A stretch of 40,666 nt of DNA from NCBI GenBank assembly GCA_016280525.1, contig JAEEGW010000194.1:1-40666 (forward strand). Reading direction: 5' to 3'. This document shows positions 2,821 through 38,113 of the stretch, piece by piece. The stretch comes from Clostridiales bacterium. Its GTDB lineage: Bacteria > Bacillota > Clostridia > Oscillospirales > CAG-272. The notes below the pieces were generated by a model that did not search any database, was not told where the DNA came from, and saw only the letters and a program-made list of their open reading frames with translations. Within the stretch, counting starts at the first letter, position 1. The number at the start of each line of letters is the position of its first letter. The position numbers were made by a program, and so were the translations under genes.

Positions 2821-2866
2821 TGGTCGGAGTGAGAAGATTTGAACTTCCGGCCTCTTGGTCCCGAAC
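2821..2866 (-). repeat. attL: displaced 46-bp 3' segment of tRNA-Pro
   Basis: TGGTCGGAGTGAGAAGATTTGAACTTCCGGCCTCTTGGTCCCGAAC is identical to 37867..37912. Sequence diverges immediately on both sides. Confidence 0.85.
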
Positions 2867-2975
2867 GGCGGTTTTTTATTCCTTTTACATTTTTTTGGGT
2901 TTTTTATCCCTTTTTAATCGGTAAAATACTTTTTTCAGCAGTCTTTATACCGTCGTCTACATTTGTTTTATTTCC

Positions 2976-2998
2976 GTTTGTGGTCAGATATGTGGTCA
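2976..2998 (+). promoter_or_regulatory. Candidate arm-type integrase binding site (left arm)
   Basis: GTTTGTGGTCAGATATGTGGTCA contains TGTGGTCA twice at a 12-bp register. The 23-mer is identical to 37757..37779, in the same orientation. Confidence 0.5.
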
Positions 2999-3432
2999 AA
3001 ATCGGACACGATCAAATATCGTGACGCAAGCCAAAGAAAAAACAATTACGAAATCCTCAGGCTTTAAGATGTGAGGCGGCGACGGGTATCAGCCAAACGT
3101 CGTTCTATTTTATTGCTCCATTGATTTTGTCGCACATGCAAAATGTTGTTATGCGCTGTGCTGACAGCTTCCGTTTTCAGCAGCGCAATTAACGTCAGTA
3201 TAATTCATTTTACACCTCCGTTCTGCATACATTATACACTGTTGTTTCGCAGATATCAAGATATACGAAACAAAAATTATTAAAAATTCAGAAATCAATA
3301 CAAATTGTTACGTCTCATTTGCTATGCTGGCTCAAAGCCCGGCACATTTTCAGGCAAAAACAAAAACACGTATATTAATGTAAAAGTTTTGTGAACAATA
3401 ACAAAAAAACGCGAAACTGTACGCGTTGCTTA

Positions 3433-3460
3433 TTGTAATTTTAATAATTTTTGATATAAT
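3433..3460 (+). promoter_or_regulatory. Putative promoter of the cargo operon
   Basis: TTGTAA (3433-3438), a 16-bp spacer, then TGATATAAT (extended -10, TATAAT at 3455-3460). It lies in a long AT-rich non-coding stretch ~60 bp upstream of the 3518 start. Confidence 0.4.
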
Positions 3461-3517
3461 ATAGTTAATATAATACAAACTAACTAAATATAATAAAAAT
3501 AAAGGATGTAACAGATT

Positions 3518-8770: not shown

Positions 8771-10144
8771 ATGACTGAAGAAGAAAAAACAAAACGGGCC
8801 GGTGAGATCGCAAAAGACGTGTTGAATTACGCCCGCAACTCGCTTCTTGTGAATATGCGTTTTCTCGATTCGGCGCTCAGCCGGCTCGGGCTTTTTCCCG
8901 CGGATACCGATATAACGCTCGGTACTGACGGAAAAAATCTGATATATCAGCCGATGCACGTTCTGAGACGTTTCAAAACGGGAAAAACCGTTATGACGCG
9001 TGATTATCTGCACGTCATTATGCACTGTATTTTCAGGCATATGTTCATAAACAGCCTGGTAAATCAGGCGGCGTGGGATCTTGCGTGCGATATAGCGGTA
9101 GAAAACGCGATATCCGGGCTCGGACTCAATACGGTTGAAACCGATGAATCGGGAAAACAAACCGCATTGTTTTCCGAATACGAAAAGAAAGCCGGCGGTA
9201 TCACCGCGGAGAGGGTATATAAGTACCTTATAGACAGCGGGTTTTCCGATGACGAGCTTGAGAAAAGACGTCAGTTCTTCAAAGCGGACGACCATTCGGT
9301 CTGGTATATGACCGACGAAGAAAAAGCGTCCGCCGGACTTCCGTCAAGCAGCGACGGTGAAAGCAAAGACGACAACGACGATGAAAATCAGGACGACGGC
9401 TCCGGCGCCGCCTACGGTTCGGAAGAAGACTGGAGGAGCATATCCGAGCACATACAGACCGACCTTGAGACGTTTCATTCACGTGGCGATACGGCAGGTA
9501 ATTTTATGCAGAACCTGCGCGAGCTGAACCGCGAAAAATACGATTATACGTCGTTTTTGAAAAAGTTTGCTGTGCTCGGTGAGGTGATGAAGATCAATCC
9601 TGAGGAATTCGATTACGTTTTCTATACATACGGTTTAAGGCTGTATGAAAAAATGCCGCTTATCGAACCGCTTGAATACAAAGACGTAAAGCGCATCAAG
9701 GATTTTGTTATCGCTATCGACACGTCCGGCTCGGTCGCCGGTGATCTTGTTCAGACGTTTTTGCAGAAAACGTTCAATATTTTAAAGTCAACGGAGAGTT
9801 TTTTCTCAAAAATAAACCTGTATATAATCCAGTGCGACGCGGCGATACAGGAAGCGTCAAAGATAACGACGCAACAGGAATTTGATGCGTATATCTCAAA
9901 TTTGACACTCAAAGGCTTCGGCGGCACGGATTTCCGCCCTGTTTTCGGTTACGTAAACTGGCTTATAGAAAAAAAGGAATTCACAAACCTCAAAGGACTT
10001 ATCTACTTCACGGACGGTTACGGCGTGTTCCCTGAAAAAAAGCCGTCGTATGAAACCGCATTCGTATTCATAGACGACGAATTCAACAACTACGACGTCC
10101 CGCCGTGGGCTATAAAGCTGATACTTAAAAAAGATGAAATATGA
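8771..10144 (+). CDS. VWA-domain protein with N-terminal DUF2201-type putative metallopeptidase-like domain (MoxR partner type)
   Basis: 457 aa. N-terminal LHVIMHCIFRH..WDLACDIAVEN resembles the DUF2201_N peptidase-like motif. An acidic linker follows (SSSDGESKDDNDDENQDDG). The C-terminal VWA domain has the MIDAS motif FVIAIDTSGSVAGD and later GGTDFRPVF..IYFTDGYG. Confidence 0.8.
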   Translation: MTEEEKTKRAGEIAKDVLNYARNSLLVNMRFLDSALSRLGLFPADTDITLGTDGKNLIYQPMHVLRRFKTGKTVMTRDYLHVIMHCIFRHMFINSLVNQAAWDLACDIAVENAISGLGLNTVETDESGKQTALFSEYEKKAGGITAERVYKYLIDSGFSDDELEKRRQFFKADDHSVWYMTDEEKASAGLPSSSDGESKDDNDDENQDDGSGAAYGSEEDWRSISEHIQTDLETFHSRGDTAGNFMQNLRELNREKYDYTSFLKKFAVLGEVMKINPEEFDYVFYTYGLRLYEKMPLIEPLEYKDVKRIKDFVIAIDTSGSVAGDLVQTFLQKTFNILKSTESFFSKINLYIIQCDAAIQEASKITTQQEFDAYISNLTLKGFGGTDFRPVFGYVNWLIEKKEFTNLKGLIYFTDGYGVFPEKKPSYETAFVFIDDEFNNYDVPPWAIKLILKKDEI

Positions 10145-10996: not shown

Positions 10997-11045
10997 CAAT
11001 ATTACATAACTAATAAAATTTCCAAAGATGAAAGGAATTAAAAAA

Positions 11046-11633
11046 ATGAGCGATTTTGTTATCGAAAACGAATTTGATGATTCTGAAATGGAATACAGAA
11101 AAGAACTGCTTTCCGAAGAACCCCTGAGAGACATTTTAAGTAGATTATGCGAAGAAAATGATGTGGAATTGCCGAGCAAACTGCGGATAACGTGTCCCGA
11201 AAATACAGATCCGGATAGTTTGGCAAAGCAAATAGTATCGGAAATCAAAACGATCATCAAGACTGCCGAACGTGGTATCAAAGCATCATTGAACGAAGGA
11301 AACGAACTGGATTTTTCATCTGGCGTTTTATATAATACCGAAAACAATAAGATATATATCAAAGTGTACGTATCATTTGAAGAATACGGCAAAGATGTAT
11401 GCTACCATGGCGATCTGGATGATCTGGATAAGAAAATAAATCAGATTCTGAAAAATAAATCTAAAGAATACCCAGGTTTGAAATATGAAGGTATTGTTTC
11501 ATGGAAGCAGTATTACGGCAGCGCATTAACATATTTCGGCCTCATAAAAAACACGAGGACAGATAAATATGCAAAAGAACTAATATTAAACGATGATGAA
11601 TTCTGGGAAGAATACGGCGATTTGTTAGAATAA
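11046..11633 (+). CDS. Hypothetical protein keeping only the MSDFVIEN N-terminus of the LRR family
   Basis: I chose the ATG at 11046 because its upstream GAAAGGAATTAAAAAAATG context duplicates that of the 11706 start. 195 aa, MSDFVIENEFDDSEMEY..., with no LRR units and no domain I recognise. Confidence 0.6.
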   Translation: MSDFVIENEFDDSEMEYRKELLSEEPLRDILSRLCEENDVELPSKLRITCPENTDPDSLAKQIVSEIKTIIKTAERGIKASLNEGNELDFSSGVLYNTENNKIYIKVYVSFEEYGKDVCYHGDLDDLDKKINQILKNKSKEYPGLKYEGIVSWKQYYGSALTYFGLIKNTRTDKYAKELILNDDEFWEEYGDLLE

Positions 11634-13553: not shown

Positions 13554-15059
13554 ATGAATATCAAGGAAGCAAAACAAGAGATCAAAAACGCGATGACGGC
13601 GTATTTTACAAAAAACGAATTCGGTGAATACGTTATTCCGGCTAACAGACAGCGCCCGGTATTTCTCATGGGCCCTCCCGGAATCGGAAAAACGGCGATA
13701 ATGGAGCAGATAGCGGAGGAACTCGGTGTCGGGCTTATCAGCTATTCCATGACGCATCACACGCGCCAGTCCGCGCTCGGTCTGCCGTTTATAGAAAAAA
13801 AGAATTACGGCGGCAAGGAATACGACGTTTCCGAATACACCATGTCGGAAATAATAGCGTCAGTTTATGATATGATGGAGGAAACGGGGCTTAAGGAGGG
13901 AATCCTGTTCCTTGACGAGATAAACTGCGTTTCCGAAACGCTGGCGCCCGTAATGCTGCAGTTTTTGCAGTACAAAATATTCGGAAAGCACAAAGTTCCG
14001 GACGGATGGATAATCGTCACCGCCGGAAACCCGCCGGAATATAACAATTCCGTGCGCGAATTCGACGTCGTGACGTGGGACAGGCTCAAGCGCATCGACG
14101 TAGAAGCCGATTACAACGCCTGGAGAGAGTACGCGCTGAACACGGGCGTTCATCCCGCCGTACTTACGTATCTCGATATAAAAAAGTCGAATTTCTATTC
14201 GATCGAAACGACGGTGGACGGCAAGAGCTTCGTAACCGCGCGCGGCTGGTCTGACCTTTCCGATATGATACGGCTTTACGAGCAAAACGGTATAAAACCG
14301 AATGAAAAGCTCATAGCTCAGTATCTGCAGAACAAGAAAATCGCAAAGGATTTTGCCATTTACTATGATCTTTTCGTAAAATACAGATCCGATTATCAGG
14401 TAGACACGATCTTATCCGGCAAAGCGGACGACGCGATAAGACAGAGAGCGAAAAACGCGAAATTTGACGAGAGACTCAGCCTGCTTGGCCTTTTGCTTGA
14501 CGGTATAAACGAGTATTTCAAAAACGTGTACAGAAGTGAACTCACGCTCACGGAGCTTTTGAATTCCCTGAAAAACGTCAGAATGGAACTCGGAAGAACG
14601 GGAGCGGACGCGGCGATAAGCAAACAGATAAAAGCGAGAAAAACCGAGCTGAGCGCCGGCAGAACAGCGTCAAACATCTCCGCGGACAAAATATACGCGT
14701 TAAATAAAGTCGTATCCGTTCTTGAAGACGATCTTGCCGCAATATCAAACGATCATCCCGCCTCGCCGGAAGACGCTTTCAAGCTGTTAAAAGAGGATTT
14801 TGACAAGCGCACAAAGGGTCTTAAAAAGCAGGCGGAAGAATCGGGTGAAAAACTGTCCAACGTATTCCGCTTCTGCGACGAAGCGTTTGCCGACGGGCAG
14901 GAACTGGTCATACTTGTAACGGAGCTGACGATAAACTATCACAGCGCGCACTTCATCTCCCGCTACGGCTGTAAAGAATACTTTGAGCATAACAAAGCTC
15001 TGCTCTTCTATGAGCGCCAGAAAGAAATAATCCAGAGCATAGAAGACCTGAAACTGTAA
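13554..15059 (+). CDS. MoxR-like AAA+ ATPase (AAA_5 type) with helical C-terminal extension
   Basis: 501 aa. Walker A VFLMGPPGIGKTAI, Walker B GILFLDEINC, then IVTAGNPPEYN and WDRLKRI, typical of the MoxR/dynein-related AAA_5 group. RBS ACGGAGAAAC. Confidence 0.85.
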   Translation: MNIKEAKQEIKNAMTAYFTKNEFGEYVIPANRQRPVFLMGPPGIGKTAIMEQIAEELGVGLISYSMTHHTRQSALGLPFIEKKNYGGKEYDVSEYTMSEIIASVYDMMEETGLKEGILFLDEINCVSETLAPVMLQFLQYKIFGKHKVPDGWIIVTAGNPPEYNNSVREFDVVTWDRLKRIDVEADYNAWREYALNTGVHPAVLTYLDIKKSNFYSIETTVDGKSFVTARGWSDLSDMIRLYEQNGIKPNEKLIAQYLQNKKIAKDFAIYYDLFVKYRSDYQVDTILSGKADDAIRQRAKNAKFDERLSLLGLLLDGINEYFKNVYRSELTLTELLNSLKNVRMELGRTGADAAISKQIKARKTELSAGRTASNISADKIYALNKVVSVLEDDLAAISNDHPASPEDAFKLLKEDFDKRTKGLKKQAEESGEKLSNVFRFCDEAFADGQELVILVTELTINYHSAHFISRYGCKEYFEHNKALLFYERQKEIIQSIEDLKL

Positions 15060-18000: not shown

Positions 18001-19910
18001 ATTTCGTGCGTGAACTCGTTGGCGCCGGTGCAACATTTGATTACAAGAGTACGCCTCAGATAATCAGAAAATACAAAACAGATCAGAACACCGCAAGCGG
18101 CAGCTACAGCACAGAGTATTATCTGATGCTCGTTCCTTCAAAAATCGATATAAACCGTAGTTATGAATATACTCCGATGTACGGCGTACCGAATATTTAC
18201 ATTACAAAAGAACTTGAAGATCAAGCTCTTCCGCTAAACGATCGTATCGAAATAGTAAAATTTCTTTTGCCAAAATATAGGAAACTCGGGATTTCTCTTG
18301 ATGAAATGCTGTATTGGGCGTTGACAAGAGGCGAGATCGAATTTGCCGACGCTTTGATCAACATGGGTGTAAATCTTAATAAAACTCCTCCGAAATACTA
18401 TTCATCGTGGGGGAACTCAACGTATATAACAATAATCACGGAAGGTTATCAGTCAAATTACTGGACTTCATATATAACTGCATTATCTGATTTGCGATCC
18501 GATCAGCTTTTGCCGATGCTGAAAAGAATAGCCTTGCTTGCATCGGATTTCGGGAAAAAACCGGTCATAAGTCAGAAAATGTTTGATGAACTTAAGTGGA
18601 ATGATGAATCTTTGTCGTTCGCTTTGGATAACTGTGATTTTTCAAAAGTTAATCAGAAAAAGGCTCTCGAATCGAGCGTTTCTGGCAACCGTGATGTTTC
18701 TCTTGCAAAGATGGCTGAGATCGGATGGCTCAGTCAAGCGGCAAAACTTGATAATCTTATTGCGTTTGCCCAGGAGAATAAAAAGAATGATATTCTGGCT
18801 TGGTTGATAGATTACAAAAACAAAACAGTTGATATTGCGGCAGAAGGAAGAAAAAAAGAAGCCCAAATGATAAAAGAGCTTAGCGAAGATCCAAATTCTG
18901 TTTCATCAATAAAAAAGGTATGGAGCTATGAAAAGCTGAGCGACGGAACGCTTTTGATTACAAGTTATAAAGGAACTGAAACGAACGTCGTGATACCGTC
19001 GGTTATCGGCAAAACTGCGGTAACGGTCATCGGGAACGAAGCGTTTTCTGCGTCATCTTTCGGTAGAAAGGCATCTAATTACGAAATAAGAAAAAAGATC
19101 ACGTCGATCATTATTCCGGAAGGGGTAAAAGAAATATGGTCTTGGGCATTCAGTTGTTGTGAATCTCTTGTAACTGTCACGCTTCCGGATACGCTCAAAA
19201 CAATAAGTAATTATGCATTCAGCTCCTGTGAAAAGCTTAAGGATATTTCAATACCAAAAGGGATCAAAACAATCGATCCGTCTGCGTTTTCAGGTTGTGA
19301 TTCATTGAAGGACGAAAACGGTTTTGCCGTGGTAGACGGGTTTTTGCTCGGTTACTATGGTTACGATTCTTCGCTTCGTATTCCGGATGTTGTTAAATAC
19401 GTCGTGTCGCTTTTAGGCAAATACTCTTCATTTAATAAAAGTATAACTGAGATAATATTGCCGGAAGGACTTGAAAATATCGGAGAAGGCGCTTTTGAAA
19501 ACTCAACAGAGCTTGAATCGATATCTATACCGTCAAGCGTAAAAACAATAGGTAAAAAAGCGTTCTTTAAATCGGGAATAGAGACAATTGAACTGAAGGA
19601 AGGACTTAAGACGATCGGAGCCGAAGCGTTTGCACACACTCCGCTTAATTCAGTAAAAATCCCGCAAAGTGTAGTAAAGATCGGTCCGCAGGCGTTTTTC
19701 AGCTGCAGGAAGCTGAAAGACGTTTATATATCCGAAAAAACAGTAAAATTCGGTAAAGAGATCCTCGGAGCATACGATTCTGACACCTCGTTGGGAGTTG
19801 TTAAACCTTCTGGCGTTTACGTACATACACCTGCAGGATCGGCGGCGGAAGAATATATGAAACAGTACGGCGGCGTATGCATTGTCAATGATTACGGGGA
19901 GGATAAATGA
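15072..19910 (+). CDS. Giant cytoplasmic LRR - ankyrin-like helical core - LRR protein (1612 aa)
   Basis: The N-terminus MTDFAIENGVLKKYNGNDTAVTIPNGITAIG is followed by ~800 aa of divergent BspA-type LRR units (IP..V..IG..AF..C..L). A ~450-aa helical region has ankyrin-like segments (ALGLACRYRGLDFVRELVGAGATFD; LYWALTRGEIEFADALINMGVNLN) and ends AWLIDYKNKTVD. A second LRR array of ~330 aa follows. The stop overlaps the next start (ATGA). Confidence 0.85.
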   Translation: MTDFAIENGVLKKYNGNDTAVTIPNGITAIGYGAFKKNKTITEIIIPNTVLCIESLAFQGCAKLKSVVFSNVLEKIGEDCFENCKSLKTVELPKTLRFLGAGAFAGCTKLISVKCDSEVFEAGEDPFSPRFSYSLDRQISPCTQLADEQGFLIFCGVLYAYYGNSTEIVVPNSVKVIVAGAFKSGEFYWERKLNLKSVVIPDTVKEIGAAAFANNKKLKSIKMPSGIKLGQNVFFGCKDLADENGFFVYDQTAYTYYYDDENVTVTEGVKKLSAGLFENKKMHSVSLPDSLICVGEKAFCGCGNLESIIIPEGVKRIGADAFKSCKCLANVSIPDSVESIGDGIFTGCERLADKNGFVIMNDTIQSFFGTARDIVVPEGIISIADSVFDSTNIASIKLPTTLRKLGQSVFENCKMLTEIEIPEGIAELKSEAFYGCSRLEKVSLPDSLTEIDSYVFCGCDKLTEIQISENVKRIGAAAFSGCSSLRKFNIPNGVKTIEYNTFSECCFLEEITIPESVEKVEDNAFLNCKNLKTVNCRTTQTSFSRSAFNGCTGLIDKNGMTIISGILFKVEDGLENVIIPEGVTTIAPDVLREGIAYFGGSFNTYKNAGTLKSVVLPSTLKDICSGAFAGCESLKTVSVPNGVKRIGEESFAGCSALTEIDIPNSVTRVDKRAFKGCSSLKSAKLSASLIELNTEVFFSCKSLKTLHIPETTVSIEIDALKGCDSLKSIEVDKNNPEYCSIDGMLFNKTGDELLYVPGGKLSHEYEIPGYVKTIGSRAFADCTALKKIVIPGSVKNIGDEAFPRKTWNSNSYLNDIEVSPEASSGMIGNNIFDIADGDKPLVFPKLPVSFVKEQAIQVCLGLGYCLNPEKYEGEYADIYKKYALSHQRILIKKGQEQKLSEIEQYFASVNPDDGSSVCAYKPELSLKKPNELQKVEILEEAVRKGTLDDLKAVIKTYKPFEITARALGLACRYRGLDFVRELVGAGATFDYKSTPQIIRKYKTDQNTASGSYSTEYYLMLVPSKIDINRSYEYTPMYGVPNIYITKELEDQALPLNDRIEIVKFLLPKYRKLGISLDEMLYWALTRGEIEFADALINMGVNLNKTPPKYYSSWGNSTYITIITEGYQSNYWTSYITALSDLRSDQLLPMLKRIALLASDFGKKPVISQKMFDELKWNDESLSFALDNCDFSKVNQKKALESSVSGNRDVSLAKMAEIGWLSQAAKLDNLIAFAQENKKNDILAWLIDYKNKTVDIAAEGRKKEAQMIKELSEDPNSVSSIKKVWSYEKLSDGTLLITSYKGTETNVVIPSVIGKTAVTVIGNEAFSASSFGRKASNYEIRKKITSIIIPEGVKEIWSWAFSCCESLVTVTLPDTLKTISNYAFSSCEKLKDISIPKGIKTIDPSAFSGCDSLKDENGFAVVDGFLLGYYGYDSSLRIPDVVKYVVSLLGKYSSFNKSITEIILPEGLENIGEGAFENSTELESISIPSSVKTIGKKAFFKSGIETIELKEGLKTIGAEAFAHTPLNSVKIPQSVVKIGPQAFFSCRKLKDVYISEKTVKFGKEILGAYDSDTSLGVVKPSGVYVHTPAGSAAEEYMKQYGGVCIVNDYGEDK

Positions 19911-20764
19911 TGTCAAAAATACTTTTACTCGGCAACGGGATAAACCGCTGCTTTGCGAAAAGCTCGTGGCGGGACGCCATTGAAAACGTTCGGTCAAAAT
20001 ACGGCGTGAAAACAACGGCGAAGCAAATAGAAAAGCTGCCGTATAATATGCAGATCGTCGCGGCTTCAAACGATAGAGTTGAAGACGCGATGAAGGATTA
20101 CTGCGCGGATCTGTGCGCGGACGAGATAAGTGAAGAAAACAAAGATCTTATTCTCAATATCACGGACGGTTTTGACGAAATCCTGACAACAAATTACAGT
20201 TTTGAGATAGAGCAGGCGCTCGGCGTCAAGCCTTCCGCCGCGTCGTACCGCAGAATTTCGAATCAGAGCAGAGACGGTCTGAAAGACCGGCAGAAAAAGA
20301 TGAATATATATAAATATCACAAAGCAAAGGACAAGCGTATTTGGCACATACACGGCGACGCCGCCGCGCCGAGATCGGTAGTTATGGGTCACTACTATTA
20401 CGGCAAGCTTTTGAGGGAGATTCAGGAGAGAGTATCGGAATTCGTGCCCGGATATATGGGCAAAACGGCAGAGGGTTTGGAATACGAACCGTCAAGCTGG
20501 GTCGATCTGTTCCTTATGAACGACGTTTATATCATCGGTTTTGCATTTGATCTGTGCGAGTACGATCTGTATTATCTGCTCTGCTGCAAAAAACGCAGAG
20601 AAAACGGCTCGACCGTAACGTATATCGTAAAAGAAGGCGAGACGATAGACCCGGAAAAGAAAATAATGCTTGACGCATATAATGTAAAAACAAAAAAAAT
20701 AAAAGCCGCGGACTATAAAGAATTTTATAAAGCCGCTGCGGAATACGTAAGGAGGATAAAATAA
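19907..20764 (+). CDS. SIR2-like (SIR2_2 family) protein, candidate NAD+-consuming effector
   Basis: 285 aa with ILLLGNGINRCF, ILTTNYSFEIEQAL, RIWHIHGD and VYIIGFAFDLCEYDLYYLL. These match the G.G, TTNYD, hHG and IGYS..D pattern of SIR2_2 domains as I remember it. An alternative ATG at 19910 has better spacing from GGGGAGG. Confidence 0.7.
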   Translation: MMSKILLLGNGINRCFAKSSWRDAIENVRSKYGVKTTAKQIEKLPYNMQIVAASNDRVEDAMKDYCADLCADEISEENKDLILNITDGFDEILTTNYSFEIEQALGVKPSAASYRRISNQSRDGLKDRQKKMNIYKYHKAKDKRIWHIHGDAAAPRSVVMGHYYYGKLLREIQERVSEFVPGYMGKTAEGLEYEPSSWVDLFLMNDVYIIGFAFDLCEYDLYYLLCCKKRRENGSTVTYIVKEGETIDPEKKIMLDAYNVKTKKIKAADYKEFYKAAAEYVRRIK

Positions 20765-20906
20765 TGAGTGATTTTGTAATTGAAAACAGAGTTTTGATCA
20801 AGTACACGGGAAAAGATTCAGACGTCGTAATTCCCGACGGCGTAACGTCAATAAGCTGGCGTGCGTTCGAAGGCTGCAGTAGTCTTACAAGCGTGACGAT
20901 ACCGGA
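20691..20906 (+). repeat. 216-bp direct repeat, copy 1 (3' end of SIR2 gene + 5' end of LRR gene)
   Basis: Near-identical to 23350..23564. By eye I found three small differences: the A8 versus A7 run, GAATTTTAT versus GATTTCTAT, and AACAGAG versus AACGGAG. Confidence 0.85.
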
Positions 20907-23325
20907 AAGCGTAACAACAATAGGCGCACGGGCATTTTCTGACTGTTGGAATCTTACTAACGTGACAATACCAGGCAGTGTAACGTCAATAGGAAGTTAT
21001 GCGTTCTTACGCTGCAGAAGTTTTTCAAACATGACTATACCAGACAGCATAACGTCAATTGCAGAGAGTGTGTTCTCCGAATGCAGCAGTCTTACAAGTG
21101 TGACCATACCGGGCGGAGTAACGGAAATAGGCAAAAATGCATTCCATGGCTGCAGCAAATTGATATATAATGAATATGATAATGCACTTTATTTGGGAAA
21201 TACGCATAATCCATATTATGCGTTAATTAAAGTAAAAAACAAGTCAAGAAAAATTGGTAATATAAATGAAAAAACAAGAATTATCGCAAGTGGAGCGTTT
21301 AACAACTGCAGCAGTCTTACAAGCATAATGATCCCCGACAGCGTGACCTCAATCGGCAATGAAGCGTTCCATAGCTGCGCAAGTCTGACAAGCATGACGA
21401 TCCCCGACAGTGTGACCTTGATCGGCAATAAAGCGTTCTATAGCTGCGCAAGTCTGACAAGCGTGACGATACCTGACAGCGTGACCTTAATCGGCAATGA
21501 AGCGTTCCATAGTTGCGCAAGCCTGAAAAGCGTGACGATACCGGATAGCGTAATATCAATAGGCATATCAGCATTTGAAAACTGCAGTGAATTGGATTAT
21601 AATGAATATGACAGTGCGCTTTATTTGGGAAATAAATATAATCCGTACCACGTTTTGATCAAAGGAATAAACGAGTCAATAAAAAGTGTTAATATAAACG
21701 AAAAAACAAAGGTCATTGCATGTGGTGCATTTTATAAATTCAACAGTCTTACCAGTATAACAATACCGGACGGCGTAACGTCAATAGGCGCTTATGCGTT
21801 TGATAGCTGCAGCGTTCTTGAAAGCGTGACTATAGGAAACGGTGTAAAGTCAATAGGCTATCGTGCATTGTGCAGCAGTCTTAAAAGCATAACTGTATCA
21901 GACAAAAAAGGTGTATATCATGCATCCGGCAACTGTCTTATAGAAACCGAGAGCAAAACGCTGATAAAAGGCTGCGAAAACAGTGTGATACCGAATGACG
22001 GCAGCGTAACATCAATAAGTGATAATGCATTTTTAGAATGCAATCTTAAAAATGTGACGATACCGGATAGCGTAACAAAGATTGGCGGTTGGGCGTTTTG
22101 CGGTTGCAGCAGTCTTACAAACATTACGATACCAGACAGTGTAACGTCAATAGGCGATTATGCGTTTTACTACTGCAGAAGTCTTACCAAAGTGACGATA
22201 CCGGGCAGTGTAACGTCAATAGGTTATGGCACGTTCGAAGAATGCAGTAACCTTACAAACGTTGATGCGTCTGAAGAGCAGTTCACGCTTGTGTGGAATA
22301 CGCTTGAACCAGATCAGAAAAATAATATTGCATACAATTGTTTGAAATTCGGTCAGACATATAACAAAGTCAAAGATTTTGTTAAGAGAAAAAAAGATGA
22401 TGTTTTAAACATAATAATCAAAGACGACGACGTTAAAGAGTTTGAATCATATTTACTGATGCTCAAAAAGCCGGACGTCGGGGCACTTGACGAATATCTT
22501 GAAAAATCGCAGAATACCATCAATATCAAAGCGTATCTTCTCGATTATAAAGCAAAAAATTTTTCAAGAGTACAAACCGAAGAATACTACGACGATCAGA
22601 CCGAAAAGGAGCTCGGATTTAAAGAACGTACATTATCGGATTGGCGAAAGATTTTCAAAATAACCGATAAAGACGGCAAAAGATATATCAGCGGCTATAG
22701 AGCTGATGATCCGACGGTGGTAATTCCCTCGGACATCGCGGGCAAGCCCGTATACGGTATAGCAGACAAGGCGTTTAAAAAATGCACAACCCTGACAAGT
22801 GTGATGATAGAGGACGGCGTAAAGTCAATAGGCGCTTGGGCGTTCGCCGGTTGCAGCAGTCTTACAAGCGTGACGATACCGAAAAGCATGACTTCAATAG
22901 ACTCCCTTGCGTTTGACGATTGTATCAGACTTAAAAGAGTTTACATAACCGATATTGCAAAATGGTGTGAGATAAGTTACTCTAATAATATATCAAATCC
23001 GTTGATTATTGCTCATAACCTGTATTTAAACAACGAATTGATGACTGATCTTGCTATACCGGACAGCGTGACGAAAATAGGCGAGAGTGCGTTCGACGGT
23101 TGCAAGAGTCTTACAAGCGTGATAATACCGGATAGCGTGACTAATATTGGTGATTATGCGTTCTATAACTGCAGAAATTTAACAAGCGTGACTATACCGG
23201 ATAGCGTAATATCAATAGGTGACAAAACGTTTTCCCGATGCAAATCGCTTAAAATATGCGCATCTGCAGGGTCATATGCCGATAAATACGCTAAGAAGAA
23301 TAAGATTCCTTTTGAGGCAATTTGA
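20764..23325 (+). CDS. Cytoplasmic LRR - helical spacer - LRR protein (853 aa)
   Basis: The start overlaps the SIR2 stop (TAATG). The N-terminus is MSDFVIENRVLIKYTGKDSDVVIPDGVTSIS. LRR arrays flank the same helical module as in the 11706 product (ASEEQFTLVW..AYLLDYKAKNFS..RYISGYRADDPTVVIPSDIAGKPVYGIADKAF). Confidence 0.85.
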   Translation: MSDFVIENRVLIKYTGKDSDVVIPDGVTSISWRAFEGCSSLTSVTIPESVTTIGARAFSDCWNLTNVTIPGSVTSIGSYAFLRCRSFSNMTIPDSITSIAESVFSECSSLTSVTIPGGVTEIGKNAFHGCSKLIYNEYDNALYLGNTHNPYYALIKVKNKSRKIGNINEKTRIIASGAFNNCSSLTSIMIPDSVTSIGNEAFHSCASLTSMTIPDSVTLIGNKAFYSCASLTSVTIPDSVTLIGNEAFHSCASLKSVTIPDSVISIGISAFENCSELDYNEYDSALYLGNKYNPYHVLIKGINESIKSVNINEKTKVIACGAFYKFNSLTSITIPDGVTSIGAYAFDSCSVLESVTIGNGVKSIGYRALCSSLKSITVSDKKGVYHASGNCLIETESKTLIKGCENSVIPNDGSVTSISDNAFLECNLKNVTIPDSVTKIGGWAFCGCSSLTNITIPDSVTSIGDYAFYYCRSLTKVTIPGSVTSIGYGTFEECSNLTNVDASEEQFTLVWNTLEPDQKNNIAYNCLKFGQTYNKVKDFVKRKKDDVLNIIIKDDDVKEFESYLLMLKKPDVGALDEYLEKSQNTINIKAYLLDYKAKNFSRVQTEEYYDDQTEKELGFKERTLSDWRKIFKITDKDGKRYISGYRADDPTVVIPSDIAGKPVYGIADKAFKKCTTLTSVMIEDGVKSIGAWAFAGCSSLTSVTIPKSMTSIDSLAFDDCIRLKRVYITDIAKWCEISYSNNISNPLIIAHNLYLNNELMTDLAIPDSVTKIGESAFDGCKSLTSVIIPDSVTNIGDYAFYNCRNLTSVTIPDSVISIGDKTFSRCKSLKICASAGSYADKYAKKNKIPFEAI
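21307..21513 (+). repeat. Three near-identical tandem 69-bp units (one LRR each)
   Basis: Units 21307-21375, 21376-21444 and 21445-21513 encode C(S/A)SLTS(I/M/V)(M/T)IPDSVT(S/L)IGN(E/K)AF(H/Y)S. The nucleotides are nearly identical between units. Confidence 0.8.
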
Positions 23326-23349
23326 TTGAAGAGCAAATAATGTATAAAT

Positions 23350-23564
23350 CAAAAAAATAAAAGCCGCGGACTATAAAGATTTCTATAAAGCCGCTGCGGA
23401 ATACGTAAGGAGGATAAAATAATGAGTGATTTTGTAATTGAAAACGGAGTTTTGATCAAGTACACGGGAAAAGATTCAGACGTCGTAATTCCCGACGGCG
23501 TAACGTCAATAAGCTGGCGTGCGTTCGAAGGCTGCAGTAGTCTTACAAGCGTGACGATACCGGA
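23350..23564 (+). repeat. 215-bp direct repeat, copy 2 (orphan SIR2 3' fragment + 5' end of LRR-DUF4132 gene)
   Basis: It carries a non-functional copy of the last ~22 SIR2 codons (KIKAADYKDFYKAAAEYVRRIK*), including the TAATG junction with the 23422 start. Confidence 0.85.
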
Positions 23565-26639: not shown

Positions 26640-26663
26640 AACGTGATTTTCAGGAGACAAAAA

Positions 26664-27488: not shown

Positions 27489-27504
27489 AAACGGGGTACA
27501 GAGA

Positions 27505-32825: not shown

Positions 32826-32999
32826 TTGTTCATCAACGCAAAAACACTTGCCGATACGCTCGGCATATCTATCTCTTCCGCATATGAGCTGATGACGGAA
32901 AAAGGATTCCCGTCGATAAGGATCGGTAAACGTCTTGTCGTACAAAAGGAAAAATTCATATCGTGGATAAACGGAAAGAGCGGAGGAAATAAATATTGA
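32826..32999 (+). CDS. Excisionase-like MerR/HTH_17-type DNA-binding protein
   Basis: Not in the track (under 60 aa from a canonical start). The frame is open from 32715. Its translation ..LFINAKTLADTLGISISSAYELMTEKGFPSIRIGKRLVVQKEKFISWINGKSGGNKY* is a typical Xis/HTH_17 pattern. The first canonical start is TTG at 32826 and has no good RBS. A strong AAGGAGG at 32771-32777 suggests an earlier non-canonical start, so the 5' end is uncertain. Confidence 0.55.
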   Translation: MFINAKTLADTLGISISSAYELMTEKGFPSIRIGKRLVVQKEKFISWINGKSGGNKY

Positions 33000-33484
33000 G
33001 TTATGAAAACGTCCGAGATCATTTCTTTCCCGTGCCGAACGATATATTCATACTCGGTCTTACGGCGGGAGAAGTCGCAGTGTATTCATATCTGTCATAC
33101 TGCGAAGACAGACGCACGTACAAATGTCATCCGTCGTATAAAACGATAGGCAAATCGCTTCATATGTCAAAGAATACCGTGTCAAAGTACGTGCGTATGC
33201 TTGAAGATAAACGTTTGATAAAAACGGAAACGACTCAGTTATACAGAAAAGGTATGCTGCAGAACGCAAATCTCAGGTACACCATACTGCCGGTAAAGGA
33301 AGCGGTTAAGCTGTATTACGACAGACAGTACGAAAAAGCGGAAGAAGATATGAGATTAAGAAAAATTGATGAAAAAATCGTCAATTGGGAGAAAAATCGT
33401 CCCCGTCCGATTTGCAAGCAGGATAAAGCCGCGGCTCGCGCCGCGCCGGATCACACCGTCCGGCAGTGCCGGTCGGGATATTAA
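32996..33484 (+). CDS. Winged-helix DNA-binding protein (replication-initiator/regulator-like)
   Basis: TTG start overlapping the previous stop, with GGAGG at 32982-32986. 162 aa. FPVPNDIFILGLTAGEVAVYSYLSYCEDRRTYKCHPSYKTIGKSLHMSKNTVSKYVRMLEDKRLI is the pattern of small wHTH Rep-like proteins of Firmicutes mobile elements. Confidence 0.6.
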   Translation: MSYENVRDHFFPVPNDIFILGLTAGEVAVYSYLSYCEDRRTYKCHPSYKTIGKSLHMSKNTVSKYVRMLEDKRLIKTETTQLYRKGMLQNANLRYTILPVKEAVKLYYDRQYEKAEEDMRLRKIDEKIVNWEKNRPRPICKQDKAAARAAPDHTVRQCRSGY

Positions 33485-33554
33485 AGGATAAAAAAGCACG
33501 TTCTATACGAAAAACGCATCAAATCTCATATATCCCGCGTAACTCAATTATACG

Positions 33555-33581
33555 GGGCAGTCCCATTAAAGAGGACTGCCC
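33555..33581. promoter_or_regulatory. Perfect 9-bp inverted repeat upstream of the relaxosome genes (oriT candidate)
   Basis: GGGCAGTCC (33555-33563), a 9-nt spacer, then GGACTGCCC (33573-33581). It ends 2 bp before the AAAGGAGG RBS of the RHH gene and is not followed by a T-run. Confidence 0.35.
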
Positions 33582-33595
33582 GAAAGGAGGCTAAT

Positions 33596-34021
33596 TTGGC
33601 AGAAAAAGAAAAAAACTGTGGTACGATGAAGGATCACAGCATCAGATTTCCCGATGAAATATGGAAGAAGATAGGCGGTATGCTCGACGCCGCCGACGTT
33701 AAAAACAACAATGAATTCGTACGCGAAGCCGTTTCGTTCTATATCGAATATCTATCCCGTCCCGACAGTTTCAGATTCATAACGCCCGCGCTTGAATCCG
33801 TAATAGACGGAAAGATAAAGGACAGCGAGGGGAGAATAAACAGAATGCTGTTCAAACTTGCCGTGGACGTTGCGTTCCTTTCGGAGATCATCGGTATCAA
33901 TTATGAATACAGCTACGATGATCTGACGGCATGGAGAAACGAATGTATAAATACGGTAAGGGCGACAAACGGCAGTCTGAGTATCATAGACAGTATGACA
34001 AAAGAGAAAGGTGACCAATAA
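33596..34021 (+). CDS. Ribbon-helix-helix-type relaxosome accessory protein (MobC-like)
   Basis: TTG start after AAAGGAGG. 141 aa. The N-terminal segment HSIRFPDEIWKKIGGMLDAADVKNNNEFVREAVSFYIEYL fits a beta-strand then helix-helix (CopG/RHH) layout. The stop lies 2 nt before the relaxase start. Confidence 0.55.
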   Translation: MAEKEKNCGTMKDHSIRFPDEIWKKIGGMLDAADVKNNNEFVREAVSFYIEYLSRPDSFRFITPALESVIDGKIKDSEGRINRMLFKLAVDVAFLSEIIGINYEYSYDDLTAWRNECINTVRATNGSLSIIDSMTKEKGDQ

Positions 34022-34023
34022 AT

Positions 34024-35130
34024 ATGCCGAGACTGATACTGAAAGCTCCGTACTATTCTCCGGTATCAAGAAGCGCTAACGGAGGCGGCAGAGGAAGATA
34101 CGCCGAATATATTGCCACACGTGAAGGCGCGGAGATCATAAAAGACCGCGGCGGCATGGTCTCGTATATCGGAGAGCGAAAAGGCTCGAACGGTTTGTTT
34201 TCAGACGCGGGAGTACCGATAGTGCTGTCAAGAATATCGGATGAGGTAAATAACCATCCCGGAAATATATGGGGCTTCATCGTATCCCTCCGACGTGACG
34301 ACGCGGAGAGGTACGGATACAACAACGCAGAATCGTGGATGAATCTTATCCGTTCGCACAGAAACGATATAGCGAAACAGATGCATATATCGCCCGAAAA
34401 CTTCAGATGGTACGCCGCGTATCATCAGAAAGATACTCATCCTCACGTTCATATACTCGCCTGGTCGGACAAGCCCGGCGAGCCGTATCTGTCAAGAAAA
34501 GGTATTGAGAATATCAAAAGCACGTTTGCAAATGACATTTTCAGACAGGAGCTTTACACGTTGTACAGCCGGCAGAGCGCCGTAAGAGACAGAATAAGGC
34601 AGACGTACAGAGACAGGCTTCAAGAGCTGAAAGAAAAGCGTCACCTGGCGGATAACGGTATCGCGCTTATGCTGTCTGATCTATCAGTCAGGCTAAAAAA
34701 GGTAAAAGGCAAAAAGCAGTACGGTTATCTCAGCAAAGATATGAAAAAGCGCGTGGATGAAATAGTAAAGGCGATATCGGATCAGCCGGATATACGCGAA
34801 ATGTATGATCTGTGGTATGAGCTTCAGTGTGAGAAATACAGAACGTACACGGACGCGACTCCGGCTAAAATACCGCTTGAAGAAAACAAAGAATTCAGAG
34901 CAATAAGAAACGCGGTGATCAACTCTGCAAAGGCTATAGGTCAGACAAACGGAACGAAGGCTGATCGTCAGCCGAAGGATTACGCCGCGGCGATCATTAA
35001 GTTTGCGTCGTCGTTGATTTGTGAAAAGTCACCGACGTTCTCGTACGATGAAGAATATGACGATATTGATAAAAAGCTGAGAAGAGAGATAAGGATGGTC
35101 AAAAACGGGGAACCTGTGTTGAGTATGTAA
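34024..35130 (+). CDS. MobL-like relaxase / mobilization protein
   Basis: 368 aa. The N-terminus APYYSP..GGGRGRYAEYIATREGAE is typical of MobL-type relaxases as I recall them. A histidine-rich motif AAYHQKDTHPHVHILAWS (H.D...PH.H) is present. Confidence 0.7.
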   Translation: MPRLILKAPYYSPVSRSANGGGRGRYAEYIATREGAEIIKDRGGMVSYIGERKGSNGLFSDAGVPIVLSRISDEVNNHPGNIWGFIVSLRRDDAERYGYNNAESWMNLIRSHRNDIAKQMHISPENFRWYAAYHQKDTHPHVHILAWSDKPGEPYLSRKGIENIKSTFANDIFRQELYTLYSRQSAVRDRIRQTYRDRLQELKEKRHLADNGIALMLSDLSVRLKKVKGKKQYGYLSKDMKKRVDEIVKAISDQPDIREMYDLWYELQCEKYRTYTDATPAKIPLEENKEFRAIRNAVINSAKAIGQTNGTKADRQPKDYAAAIIKFASSLICEKSPTFSYDEEYDDIDKKLRREIRMVKNGEPVLSM

Positions 35131-35198
35131 CTTTTCATATAATCTCTGGACTTGTGAAAAAAACGTGGTATTGTATAACAGTGAAAGGATGTGATAAT

Positions 35199-36362
35199 TT
35201 GGCAAAAAGAAGACCGAACGGTGACGGCATGGTCAGGCGCCGCAAAGACGGAAGATGGGAAGGCAGGATAATCGCCGGTCATAAAAGCGACGGCAGACCG
35301 ATATACAAAAGCGTGCTCGCAAAAACGCAGAAGGAACTGAGCGAAAAGCTGAATGAGCTTAAAACGGCGCATAACGGCGTCGAGCTGACGGAAGGCGGAG
35401 ATATATCGCTTTCGGAATGGCTTGATAAATGGATGTCCGAATACAAAAGCAGGACGGTTCGCCCGACAACGTATAAGTCCTATGTGAATTTGATCGAAAG
35501 ACATATAAAACCGGTAATAGGGAAGAAGAAACTGTCCCGTTTATCTGAGACGGACGTTCAGAAGTTCTATAACGATAAACTGAACGACGGGTTATCGGCG
35601 TCGTCGGTAAGGGCGATCCATATGGTACTTCATCAGGCTGTGAACGCCGCACTGTGCTGTGGAGCCGTGCTTCACGATCCGACGGACGGAGCCGTACTGC
35701 CGAAAAGAGAAGTTTTTGAGAAAAGCGTTCTTTCAAAGCCACAGACAGATGCCCTTCTGAATAATCTGAAGGACGATCCGATTTGGTACGATTTTTTCTG
35801 TACGGAAGTTATGACTGGCATGAGACGCGGCGAGATATGCGCTCTTAAATGGGAGGATTTTGACGAGAACAACGGAACGCTTCATATACGCAGATCGGTG
35901 CACTACGAGCACGGAGAGCCGGTGACGGGAGATACGAAAACGAGCGAGGGAAACAGAACGATAGTATTGCCGGCTACTGTTTTGGAGATGTTGATAGACA
36001 GAAAGAAACGGATAGGCGGAGAATGGATCTTCCCCGATCCGTTCAAAGCAAAAAGACCCGTTATACCGCAGTCGGCATATATAAGGCTGCAGAAAGCTCT
36101 GAAGGAGGCGGGTCTGCCGCATATACGGTTTCACGATCTGCGTCACAGCTTTGCAACCATGGCGGCGTCAAACGGCGTCGATCCGAGAACGCTTGCCGGA
36201 GTACTCGGGCATACCAACGCGTCATTTACGCTTGACGTCTATACTCACGTAACGACGGATATGCAGAAAAACGCGGCAGAAAAGATAGGCATCTATATCA
36301 CGGATGTATTGGGAGGTGATCTTAAGCCGTGGCAAAAAGACGAAAAAAAGGCGACGGTCTGA
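35199..36362 (+). CDS. Tyrosine recombinase/integrase 1
   Basis: I prefer the TTG at 35199 so that the N-terminus (M)AKRRPNGDGMVRRRKDGRWEGRI parallels integrase 2. The catalytic set is TGMRRGEI (R), HDLRHSFAT (H..R) and GHTNASFTLDVYTH (H..Y). Confidence 0.85.
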   Translation: MAKRRPNGDGMVRRRKDGRWEGRIIAGHKSDGRPIYKSVLAKTQKELSEKLNELKTAHNGVELTEGGDISLSEWLDKWMSEYKSRTVRPTTYKSYVNLIERHIKPVIGKKKLSRLSETDVQKFYNDKLNDGLSASSVRAIHMVLHQAVNAALCCGAVLHDPTDGAVLPKREVFEKSVLSKPQTDALLNNLKDDPIWYDFFCTEVMTGMRRGEICALKWEDFDENNGTLHIRRSVHYEHGEPVTGDTKTSEGNRTIVLPATVLEMLIDRKKRIGGEWIFPDPFKAKRPVIPQSAYIRLQKALKEAGLPHIRFHDLRHSFATMAASNGVDPRTLAGVLGHTNASFTLDVYTHVTTDMQKNAAEKIGIYITDVLGGDLKPWQKDEKKATV

Positions 36363-37732
36363 TATACCGCCGCAAAGACGGCAGATGGGAAGGCAGAGTT
36401 GTCGTCGGATATGATGGTAACGGTCTTCCGATCACGAAAAACGTACTCGCTAAAACAAAATATGAGTGCGCGGAAAAACTGGAAAAGCTTAAGGACAAAA
36501 GACCGGATTGCACTCCTGCTGAGTATTCACGCAGTATGACGTTCGGTGAATGGATTGATTACTGGTACAACACGTTTTGCAAGCCGGCGCTGCGAGACAG
36601 CACCGCATCAGGATATGAAAGTCACATATACAATCATATCATATCGGATATCGGAGATATACCGTTATGCAAATTAAAGCAAAACAATCTGCAGCAGTTC
36701 TATTCCGATCTTAAATCAAAGGGCAGAAAAACGCGGACCGAGATATATGGTACCGGTTTGTCCGACAGAACAGTTAGAGCAGTTCACGCATGCTGCCGCG
36801 CCGCGCTTGATAAAGCGGTGAAGATGAAGCTGATACGCGTTAATCCCGCGGATATGTGCAGGTTGCCTCCGAAAAAGGGAAAGGAAAAACAAATACTGTC
36901 CGATGACGAAATGAGACGGCTTATGATACAGGCGAAAGAAGACGGATTCTACGAGATGTTTCTTCTCGATCTTTCAACAGGTATGAGGCGCGGAGAGCTC
37001 CTTGCGCTCAAATGGGACGATATAGATTTACAGAGCGGAGAGATCAGAATAAGCAAACAGGTAAAGATAAAAAACGGTCAGACCGTTATATCTGCGCCTA
37101 AAACAAAAAATGCGGTAAGGTCAATAATAGTACCGCCTGAAATAACAGGGATATTAAAAGAATACAAAGAAACTGTCAACTCGGAATGGGTGTTTCCATC
37201 GCCGATAAAGGATGACGCTCCGAGAGATCCCACGGCGTGCCGTAAAAGTCTTACTAAAATCCTTGAACGCGCTGGATGTAAGCACGTCAGATTTCACGAT
37301 CTGCGGCACACGTTCGCGACAAACGCATTGAAATACGGTATGGACGTAAAAACGCTCGCGGCGACGATAGGTCATGCCTCGGCTGAAACTACACTCGATA
37401 TCTACAGCCACGTAACGGACGATATGAAAAGACAGGCGGCGAAAAGAATAGACGCCGTAATAAACGGAACGAAATCTGTACCTGATGAAACTGCCGGAGT
37501 AACAACTAAAAAATTCGAAACCGTTTTCGAGCCTTACAAAGGAAAAATACGCAAGCGCGGAACCGGTTGCATATCAAGGATCAACGAAAACACGTGGGAG
37601 GGACGGTACGCGCCTAAGATAGACGGAAAACGCATTCAGCGAGTGGTTTACGCTCACAGCGAGGAAGACTGCGAAGAAAAACTGAAAGAACTAATAGCCG
37701 AAATGAACGCGGAAAAGGCGCGTAAAATATGA
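36329..37732 (+). CDS. Tyrosine recombinase/integrase 2 with an extra C-terminal arm-binding-like domain
   Basis: GTG start after GGGAGGTG, overlapping integrase 1 by 34 nt. The catalytic set is TGMRRGEL, HDLRHTFAT and GHASAETTLDIYSH. The N-terminus KGDGLIYRRKDGRWEGRVVVGYDGNGLPITKNVLAKTKYECAEKLEKLK is echoed at the C-terminus by KRGTGCISRINENTWEGRYAPKIDGKRIQRVVYAHSEEDCEEKLKELI. Confidence 0.85.
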   Translation: MAKRRKKGDGLIYRRKDGRWEGRVVVGYDGNGLPITKNVLAKTKYECAEKLEKLKDKRPDCTPAEYSRSMTFGEWIDYWYNTFCKPALRDSTASGYESHIYNHIISDIGDIPLCKLKQNNLQQFYSDLKSKGRKTRTEIYGTGLSDRTVRAVHACCRAALDKAVKMKLIRVNPADMCRLPPKKGKEKQILSDDEMRRLMIQAKEDGFYEMFLLDLSTGMRRGELLALKWDDIDLQSGEIRISKQVKIKNGQTVISAPKTKNAVRSIIVPPEITGILKEYKETVNSEWVFPSPIKDDAPRDPTACRKSLTKILERAGCKHVRFHDLRHTFATNALKYGMDVKTLAATIGHASAETTLDIYSHVTDDMKRQAAKRIDAVINGTKSVPDETAGVTTKKFETVFEPYKGKIRKRGTGCISRINENTWEGRYAPKIDGKRIQRVVYAHSEEDCEEKLKELIAEMNAEKARKI

Positions 37733-37822: not shown

Positions 37823-37867
37823 AACACCGCATATCAGGCAGCAATGCAAGATAAGCGGTGTTATTTT
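37823..37867 (+). terminator. Terminal hairpin: terminator of the integrase operon, and on the other strand of the regenerated tRNA-Pro
   Basis: AACACCGCATATC (37823-37835) pairs with GATAAGCGGTGTT (37850-37862) with one mismatch, followed by ATTTT. On the minus strand the hairpin is followed by TTTTTATC. Confidence 0.65.
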
Positions 37868-37912
37868 GGTCGGAGTGAGAAGATTTGAACTTCCGGCCTC
37901 TTGGTCCCGAAC
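37867..37912 (-). repeat. attR: 46-bp core inside the intact tRNA-Pro
   Basis: Identical to 2821..2866. Confidence 0.85.
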
Positions 37913-37943
37913 CAAGCGCTCTACCAAACTGAGCCACACCCCG
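37867..37943 (-). tRNA. tRNA-Pro (anticodon CGG), CCA encoded
   Basis: The reverse complement is CGGGGTGTGGCTCAGTTTGGTAGAGCGCTTGGTTCGGGACCAAGAGGCCGGAAGTTCAAATCTTCTCACTCCGACCA. It folds by hand into a cloverleaf: acceptor CGGGGTG/CACTCCG, D stem GCTC/GAGC, anticodon stem CTTGG/CCAAG with loop TTCGGGA, and T stem GGAAG/CTTCT with loop TTCAAAT. Confidence 0.9.
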
Positions 37944-38084: not shown

Positions 38085-38113
38085 TTGACAAATAAAAAAT
38101 TATATGATAAAAT
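38085..38113 (+). promoter_or_regulatory. Putative promoter of the dockerin-esterase gene
   Basis: TTGACA (38085-38090), a 17-bp spacer, then TGATAAAAT (TAAAAT at 38108-38113). Confidence 0.45.

Follow-up and report, generated by a model that had tools for sequence, protein, structure and literature searches.

A stand-alone SIR2-domain protein encoded among leucine-rich repeat genes on a Clostridial mobilizable element, a candidate NAD+-depleting effector

The stretch analyzed here, hereafter the window, comprises positions 1 to 40,666 of contig JAEEGW010000194.1 from a Clostridiales bacterium (assembly GCA_016280525.1). Between two genes for leucine-rich repeat (LRR) proteins it carries an open reading frame (ORF) of 285 amino acids (aa), here termed SIR2, that belongs to the SIR2_2 superfamily and is itself uncharacterised. 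Profile matches and structure prediction support its product as a bare SIR2 domain, of the type seen in ThsA, DSR2 and KomC, in which the signature of the nicotinamide adenine dinucleotide (NAD) site is intact and which is predicted to cleave NAD+. The genomic context partly supports a link between SIR2 and the LRR genes, and the best explanation overall, in which the same context leaves us with as much belief as doubt, is an immune-type module of LRR proteins with SIR2 as its putative NAD+-depleting output.

The protein was assigned to Pfam SIR2_2 (PF13289) over residues 91-180, with 30.4 bits against a gathering cut-off of 24.5 (E 4.9e-7). Its AlphaFold2 model has a pLDDT of 95.9 and a pTM of 0.92, and the top 50 matches of a Foldseek search against the PDB were all SIR2 domains of defence NADases (ThsA, DSR2, KomC, Avs5), with a probability of 1.00, about 300 aligned columns and TMq values of 0.56-0.65. 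The best match was ThsA (8btp, E 7.6e-9), and the highest TM-score within these 50 was that of KomC (TMq 0.65). Since about 300 columns are aligned, the SIR2 domain, a Rossmann-type fold, spans the whole protein. An earlier note, made from the sequence without database searches, had named four SIR2_2 motifs and proposed a structural comparison with the SIR2 domains of ThsA and DSR2. All four occur in the protein (GNG at residue 9, TTNY at 94, HIHG at 147, GFAFD at 211), and the comparison returned a confident match. In an alignment of 81 sequences with identities down to 33%, G9-N10-G11, N96 and H149-G150 are invariant, and H147 and a GHYYY motif specific to the family are likewise invariant or almost so. 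Absence of a SIR2_2 profile match and loss of NAD-binding or catalytic residues were both looked for, and neither was found.

A single-sequence search of the PDB with the SIR2 protein gave no matches; only the family profile reached KomC (E 2.4e-4), FAM118B and ThsA. TTNY and HIHG fall within these alignments, opposite TTNY in KomC and TTNF and HIHG in FAM118B. NCBIfam and PHROGs returned nothing for the protein. In total, 694 relatives were found, nearly all of 280-330 aa, in Lachnospiraceae, Oscillospiraceae and similar groups, and a library-wide profile search yielded 2,099 representative clusters of the family. The best 150 of these representatives are all 184-358 aa long and, given these lengths, stand-alone, which agrees with the earlier view that the protein has no sensor domain of its own.

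The cargo in which SIR2 lies is one long uninterrupted plus-strand gene train encoding six LRR_5 proteins (three with DUF4132), SIR2, a MoxR ATPase and a DUF2201 protein. The wedging of SIR2 between LRR genes by stop/start overlaps, as first described, was borne out: its start codon and the TGA that ends the 1612-aa ORF share the sequence ATGA (19907-19910), its TAA stop is joined to the ATG of the 853-aa ORF in TAATG (20762-20766), and both flanking products are LRR_5 proteins. An alternative in-frame ATG is found at position 19910, with a spacing of 8 nt from the sequence GGAGG (19897-19901) versus 5 nt for 19907; being the better spaced, it may reduce the upstream overlap from four nucleotides to one (TGATG). 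A further AGGAGG (20750-20755) lies 8 nt 5' of the downstream LRR start codon, and SIR2 and that LRR gene thus each have their own Shine-Dalgarno sequence. Overlapping junctions make up 5 of the 14 same-strand junctions from 3518 to 31406, as counted from the ORF list; they are routine in this gene train and unremarkable. In L001, the closest syntenic relative among the loci compared here (designated by L numbers), whose SIR2 is 77% identical, the TAATG junction is retained and a 17-nt spacer takes the place of the upstream ATGA overlap. Of the translational coupling and fixed stoichiometry originally read from these junctions, coupling is hence possible, whereas fixed stoichiometry is unsupported, because the overlaps are routine, each gene has a Shine-Dalgarno sequence to itself and L001 lacks the upstream overlap. 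No terminator-like sites were found on the plus strand between 15222 and 23925, promoter-like sites were at chance level (34 found versus 32 +/- 5.8 expected), and no internal promoter or terminator above chance separates SIR2 from its neighbours. The same-strand organization without terminators and the chance level of promoter-like sites make co-transcription of SIR2 with its LRR neighbours likely. No compositional anomaly of the SIR2 gene was found within the island.

The LRR proteins of the window present several sensor-like traits. None of the six has a signal peptide or a transmembrane segment, and they are therefore predicted to be cytoplasmic, unlike classical BspA adhesins; the 1612-aa protein, for instance, begins with MTDFAIENGVL... 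and reaches a maximum KD19 of 1.43. The six genes share a common 5' end of about 106 nt (MSDFVIENGVL.KYTG; at 3516, 6396, 11704, 15070, 20762 and 23420), which may provide recombination handles for cassette shuffling. The same start motif appears after 6 residues in the 201-aa ORF (11028-11090), as if in a decayed LRR gene start. In addition, a direct repeat of 250 nt (20675-20924 and 23333-23582, 96% identical) duplicates the SIR2 3' end together with its junction, pointing to a scar of recent cassette duplication or of recombination across the SIR2-LRR junction. When the window is compared with L001, identity is 82% for MoxR and 77% for SIR2, whereas it drops to about 30% for the intervening LRR gene and is 41% for the best-matching paralogue of that gene. 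Fast divergence, the lack of export or membrane signals and recent cassette duplication suggest that the LRR proteins are sensor-like.

To assess what adjoins SIR2 relatives, a forward test covered 80 species-level genome loci, all from Clostridia, and the contigs of selected homologues. The loci were annotated with the proteins of the window and with domain probes, and 72 of them had a called SIR2 gene. A repeat protein (LRR_5, TPR-TIR-RCC1/DUF6273 or Sel1) was directly adjacent to SIR2 in 34 of these 72 loci, and LRR_5 in 15. Repeat proteins accounted for 27.9% of SIR2-adjacent genes versus 3.1% of genes at least four positions away (binomial P ~1e-25, uncorrected for relatedness), and LRR proteins alone for 11% versus 1.2% (P ~1e-10, likewise uncorrected). 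The junctions between SIR2 and its neighbours were mostly overlapping or shorter than 20 nt.

The SIR2 relatives occur in several contexts. In context A (about 18 loci), SIR2 accompanies arrays of TPR-TIR-(RCC1 or DUF6273) genes and a Band7/SPFH protein. The TPR-TIR_2 proteins in whose arrays SIR2 lies, together with Band7/SPFH, in L019, L025, L033, L035, L037, L042, L057, L079, L081 and L008/L009 are 800-1100 aa long and have variable C-termini (RCC1, DUF6273), and no PADLOC model match was found among these partners; the TPR-TIR/SIR2/SPFH set could be a Thoeris-like yet undescribed gene set. Context B consists of LRR_5 genes, with or without DUF4132 and with or without MoxR and DUF2201, often accompanied by Sel1, SbcCD or DUF1351-DEDDh. 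Its full component set recurs in permuted order in eight loci (L003, L018, L022, L032, L040, L050, L053, L100), with SIR2 embedded between LRR and MoxR at differing positions in L022 and L050, while L001 keeps the order of the window, MoxR-LRR-SIR2-LRR/DUF4132. In context C, a monophyletic SIR2 clade is coupled to a major facilitator superfamily (MFS) transporter, often with a 4-nt overlap (L056, L058, L061-L063, L065, L066, L071, L077, L078, L085; the clade includes Evtepia and Ruminiclostridium). Context D is a SIR2-SbcD-SbcC series (L006, L007, L024), these genes also lying within one cluster in L050, and context E comprises solitary SIR2 genes. Contexts A and B are intermixed on a neighbour-joining tree of the SIR2 family, indicating that the SIR2 gene moves between array types. 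Defence genes (DISARM DrmB, HsdM, BREX) were found beside some relatives, which, together with the location of the cluster on a mobile element, favours a conflict setting.

A reverse test started from the DUF2201 protein and took in 41 metagenome loci that carry it. Most of those long enough to show the set contain an LRR gene and MoxR together with DUF2201; this triad is found in gut and rumen metagenome loci (L094-L134), for example at 9083-12898 in L113 and 3292-7079 in L121. SIR2 is missing from 40 of the 41 loci, the sole exception being L100, where it lies between DUF6273 genes. This result rules out SIR2 as an obligatory part of the LRR-DUF2201-MoxR module and indicates an optional add-on rather than a core part or fixed partner. 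Searches of the literature returned no description of the triad and nothing on DUF4132, DUF2201, DUF6273, MoxR+vWA+SIR2 or TIR+SIR2+SPFH gene sets of this kind.

Taken as an immune-type module, the LRR(-DUF4132)/DUF2201/MoxR genes would be self-sufficient, with SIR2 as an optional effector plugged into them. The fast-diversifying LRR proteins would recognise an invader-derived cue, possibly via the MoxR-VWA pair, which might act as a threshold or chaperone, and would then release or assemble the SIR2 enzyme; SIR2 would degrade NAD+ and the infected cell would be halted, as in abortive infection. In other loci, recognition would be provided by the TPR-TIR-RCC1/DUF6273 proteins. The proposal of the earlier note that the flanking LRR proteins regulate SIR2 is therefore upheld only in part: enriched adjacency and permuted clusters favour it, whereas the triad occurs mostly without SIR2 and other partners are as frequent.

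Several observations, besides the reverse test, weigh against this module. About half of the SIR2 loci have no recognisable repeat-protein neighbour, the family pairs as often with TPR-TIR-RCC1/DUF6273 and Band7, many members are solitary, and one whole clade is coupled to the MFS transporter. The enrichment statistic ignores phylogenetic non-independence. Several triad loci have ordinary chromosomal settings, and the triad is also found next to BREX. No fusion of SIR2 to any partner domain was found among the best 150 representatives, and no partner protein is matched by a PADLOC defence model. NADase activity, toxicity and a role in defence are predictions, and the module would also need a means of keeping a bare SIR2 domain inactive.

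Many of the same observations would fit an autonomous, AbiH-like single-gene effector, for which the LRR arrays are mere permissive hot spots of insertion or recombination and the LRR proteins are unrelated, a possibility we consider unlikely yet the foremost of the alternatives. Under it, the solitary loci (e.g. L010, next to parAB, L011, L016, L017 and L026-L029), the scarcity of SIR2 among triad loci, the lack of fusions and the interleaved contexts of a gene that moves easily would all be accommodated, as would the repeat across the SIR2 3' end, a trace of recombination at this very junction, and the weak match to the AbiH Pfam family (27.7 bits). Such an effector does not readily explain why repeat-protein adjacency is about 9-fold enriched even when compared with genes a few kb off in the same loci, why overlapping, operon-like junctions recur in more than 25 independent loci, or why SIR2 sits between LRR and MoxR at differing positions; moreover, the protein holds nothing beyond the SIR2 domain to sense with.

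The genes near close relatives bear on another alternative. A Tpt1/KptA RNA 2'-phosphotransferase gene lies directly 3' of a 70%-identical SIR2 (contig of P0004, GCA_016648615.1), and L003 carries PARP-like and NUDIX genes (2974-4512 and 20796-20882); together they lend supporting colour to an NAD/ADP-ribose theme, which also counts in favour of the immune-type module. They would equally suit a non-lethal sirtuin that modifies proteins or nucleic acids, with NAD+-dependent ADP-ribosylation or deacylation of a target (the repeat proteins or MoxR/VWA being possible ones) as a regulatory step in place of NAD+ depletion. The conserved Asn and His fit a NADase and a transferase alike, and chromosomal copies that stand alone, with no regulator apparent (the MFS clade, L010), suggest no intrinsic toxicity. 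We nevertheless regard such a modifying enzyme as improbable, because the strong structural neighbours are all NAD+-depleting defence SIR2s and none is a deacylase. A classical sirtuin deacylase (PF02146) was rejected: the protein has no match to that family at E <= 0.01 and shows no CxxC pairs that could form the Cys4 zinc module of sirtuins, and viral sirtuin deacylases match it poorly (TM 0.37).

The SbcCD genes raise a further alternative, a Lamassu-like system in which SIR2 would be an LmuA-type effector under the SMC/Rad50-like SbcC (28641-31406) and SbcD, answering foreign DNA ends. The PADLOC LmuA model matches SIR2 with 28.4 bits and the LmuB model matches SbcC with 79 bits; in addition to the SbcD- and SbcC-like genes of context D, SbcCD is found divergent beside the LRR-DUF4132-DUF2201-MoxR module in six loci (L102, L103, L106, L107, L126, L133). 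The LmuA match, however, is limited to the SIR2 half (positions 20-181 of 433), which implies that the LmuB-binding C-terminal part is absent. Furthermore, a scan of window proteins found no LmuC, the partner of the SMC-like protein is a canonical SbcD (phrog_100, SbcD_C), and SIR2 and SbcD are four genes and 6.6 kb apart in the window. Membership in Lamassu as an LmuA was rejected on the partial match and the missing LmuC, and a Lamassu-like arrangement more broadly appears very improbable.

Comparison with known systems built on a SIR2 or AbiH protein places SIR2 close to several of them and inside none. KomC of Kongming (PDB 8zsf, 9xvc) is likewise a small SIR2-only protein (264 aa) that needs separately encoded partners, and it is the best PDB profile match, with the GxG loop and TTNY aligned at about 14% identity. 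The partners of KomC, the adenosine deaminase KomA and the HAM1 protein KomB, have no counterpart domain among the window ORFs scanned with Pfam, which excludes Kongming membership; the neighbours of SIR2 are instead LRR_5, DUF4132, MoxR and DUF2201 proteins. In Thoeris, the SIR2-SLOG NADase ThsA is activated by a TIR-made signal. The SIR2 relative in L019 weakly matches the PADLOC ThsA model, and in the loci of context A the gene lies among several TIR-domain genes, as one ThsA does with several ThsB genes. The protein studied here has no further Pfam domain and, since it ends with the SIR2 domain, no SLOG; no window protein matched a TIR domain, TIR genes being adjacent only in the loci of other family members, and Thoeris membership was thus rejected. 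The long, multidomain TIR proteins of those loci, without a PADLOC match, are also unlike Thoeris ThsB. DSR2 and Avs5 share the SIR2 NADase fold and a logic in which a large repeat or solenoid sensor controls a SIR2 effector. In them, however, sensor and SIR2 form one polypeptide, whereas here a separate 285-aa SIR2 is accompanied by multiple paralogous candidate sensors, and the lack of a fused sensor excludes membership in either.

AbiH (PF14253), a Lactococcus single-gene abortive infection protein, resembles SIR2 in its similar size, single domain and weak profile similarity over residues 46-230; membership was rejected, as the match stays below the cut-off of 30.9 bits and no PADLOC AbiH match was obtained. 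A MoxR-type ATPase, a DUF4132 protein and a VWA protein also co-occur in the E. coli yehLMPQ-type set, for whose genes we know of no established function; here, by comparison, DUF4132 and BspA-type LRRs form single proteins, the genes occur in several copies and SIR2 is embedded among them. The MoxR-vWA conflict systems combine a MoxR AAA+ ATPase and a VWA protein with diversifying accessory genes in conflict-like neighbourhoods (Kaur, Burroughs, Iyer, Aravind 2020, PMC7159879); the text of that paper contains no DUF2201, no NADase and no SIR2, and LRR occurs once, in a reference. As in those systems, a MoxR with Walker A and B motifs shares its gene train with a VWA-like protein, DUF2201, the pair being conserved across the 41 loci. 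Unlike them, the loci have no beta-propeller or VMAP components and occur in gut Clostridia, which are unicellular. Of such MoxR-vWA-type loci, 8-9 have SIR2 embedded in them, yet it remains scarce when DUF2201 is the anchor.

The SIR2 gene is cargo of an integrative mobilizable element of about 35 kb inserted at a tRNA-Pro gene, as delimited by attachment (att) repeats at this tRNA gene, two tyrosine recombinases, a MobL relaxase, an HTH_36 protein and a contrast in GC content (0.37-0.49 within the element versus 0.54-0.55 in the outermost kilobases of the window). A phage origin of SIR2 was rejected (two weak tblastn matches in 50,697 phage records, three in IMG/VR and weak structure matches in BFVD), as was a plasmid origin (one distant Vibrio match only); a distant homologue in Salmonella is carried by an integrative and conjugative element (ICE). 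The coordinates of the element and its genes are collected in the table. Within its cargo, DUF2201 and MoxR match the phage families phrog_1314 and phrog_1297 with about 140 bits, and the "putative metallopeptidase" region of DUF2201_N reads HVIMH (residues 81-85) rather than HExxH, so that its catalytic glutamate would be missing if the alignment holds. The SbcD ORF, as called from a GTG start, overlaps the upstream gene by 77 nt, and its phosphoesterase N-terminus MKIIHLSDLH begins at residue 32, placing the real start probably near 27505. Just beyond the element, a dockerin-bearing SASA-type carbohydrate esterase (38104-40008) points to a cellulosome-forming, Ruminococcus-like Clostridial host.

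Table. Features of the mobilizable element in the window, in order of position
Feature	Position	Strand	Evidence or remark
Left att direct repeat, 46 nt	2821..2866	.	Exact copy of 37867-37912
LRR_5 + DUF4132 protein, 876 aa	3518..6148	+	Pfam
LRR_5 (one unit) + DUF4132 protein, 787 aa	6398..8761	+	Pfam
DUF2201_N + DUF2201 VWA-like protein, MoxR partner	8771..10144	+	Pfam
DEDDh (RNase_T) exonuclease, 179 aa	10134..10673	+	Family search
Protein of no known family, 201 aa, with LRR-gene start motif MKGIKKMSDFVIEN at N-terminus	11028..11633	+	No family matches
LRR_5 protein, 577 aa	11706..13439	+	Pfam
MoxR-like AAA+ ATPase	13554..15059	+	Walker A GPPGIGKT, Walker B ILFLDE; orthologue in L001
BspA-type LRR_5 protein, 1612 aa, no signal peptide or transmembrane segment	15072..19910	+	LRR_5 E 3.4e-193
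Stand-alone SIR2-domain protein, predicted to cleave NAD+	19907..20764	+	285 aa, ATG start; Pfam, AlphaFold2, Foldseek
BspA-type LRR_5 protein, 853 aa, predicted cytoplasmic	20764..23325	+	LRR_5 E 4e-161
Non-coding duplicate of the terminal ~85 nt of SIR2	23333..23421	+	Includes Shine-Dalgarno sequence and TAATG junction, ahead of next LRR gene
LRR_5 + DUF4132 protein, 618 aa	23422..25278	+	LRR_5 E 1.3e-59, DUF4132 E 2.4e-25
DUF1351 + RNase_T exonuclease	25305-26639	+	Recurrent companion in related loci
RNA polymerase alpha-CTD-like protein	26643-27488	+	Recurrent companion in related loci
SbcD	27412-28644	+	Recurrent companion in related loci
SbcC	28641-31406	+	Recurrent companion in related loci
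Mobility module	32996..37732	+	HTH_36 replication-initiator-like protein; MobL relaxase 34024-35130; tyrosine recombinases 35154-36362 and 36329-37732
tRNA-Pro(CGG)	37867..37943	-	Its 3' 46 nt (37867-37912) are the right att repeat

To our knowledge, defence SIR2 NADases are always fused to a sensor or work with a defined partner (TIR/SLOG signalling, HerA, pAgo, KomB). Here, a bare SIR2 domain recurs beside fast-changing cytoplasmic LRR, TIR-RCC1 or DUF6273 arrays in abundant gut and rumen Clostridia and, judged by genomic context, this is a new version of the theme of a SIR2 effector plus a separate sensor. If the link between SIR2 and the LRR genes were not functional, the gene would simply add to the uncharacterised SIR2_2 genes carried by mobile elements. 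If it is functional, LRR proteins, which typify the innate immune sensors of plants and animals, would be added to bacterial immune sensing, a conserved LRR-DUF2201-MoxR triad would be defined, and a first functional handle would be gained on DUF4132, DUF2201 and the intracellular BspA-type LRR proteins, all of them widespread and uncharacterised. A broader and more doubtful proposal is that the small SIR2 family is the shared NAD+-depleting executioner of undescribed Clostridial immune loci, whose repeat-protein arrays form a germline-encoded receptor repertoire. Equally tentatively, this repertoire would comprise two kinds of array, one pairing MoxR/VWA with BspA-type LRR proteins that may or may not carry DUF4132, the other pairing an SPFH protein with TPR-TIR-RCC1/DUF6273 proteins. 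Were it true, these loci would represent a bacterial equivalent of the LRR receptor arrays of innate immunity, with a separately encoded effector.

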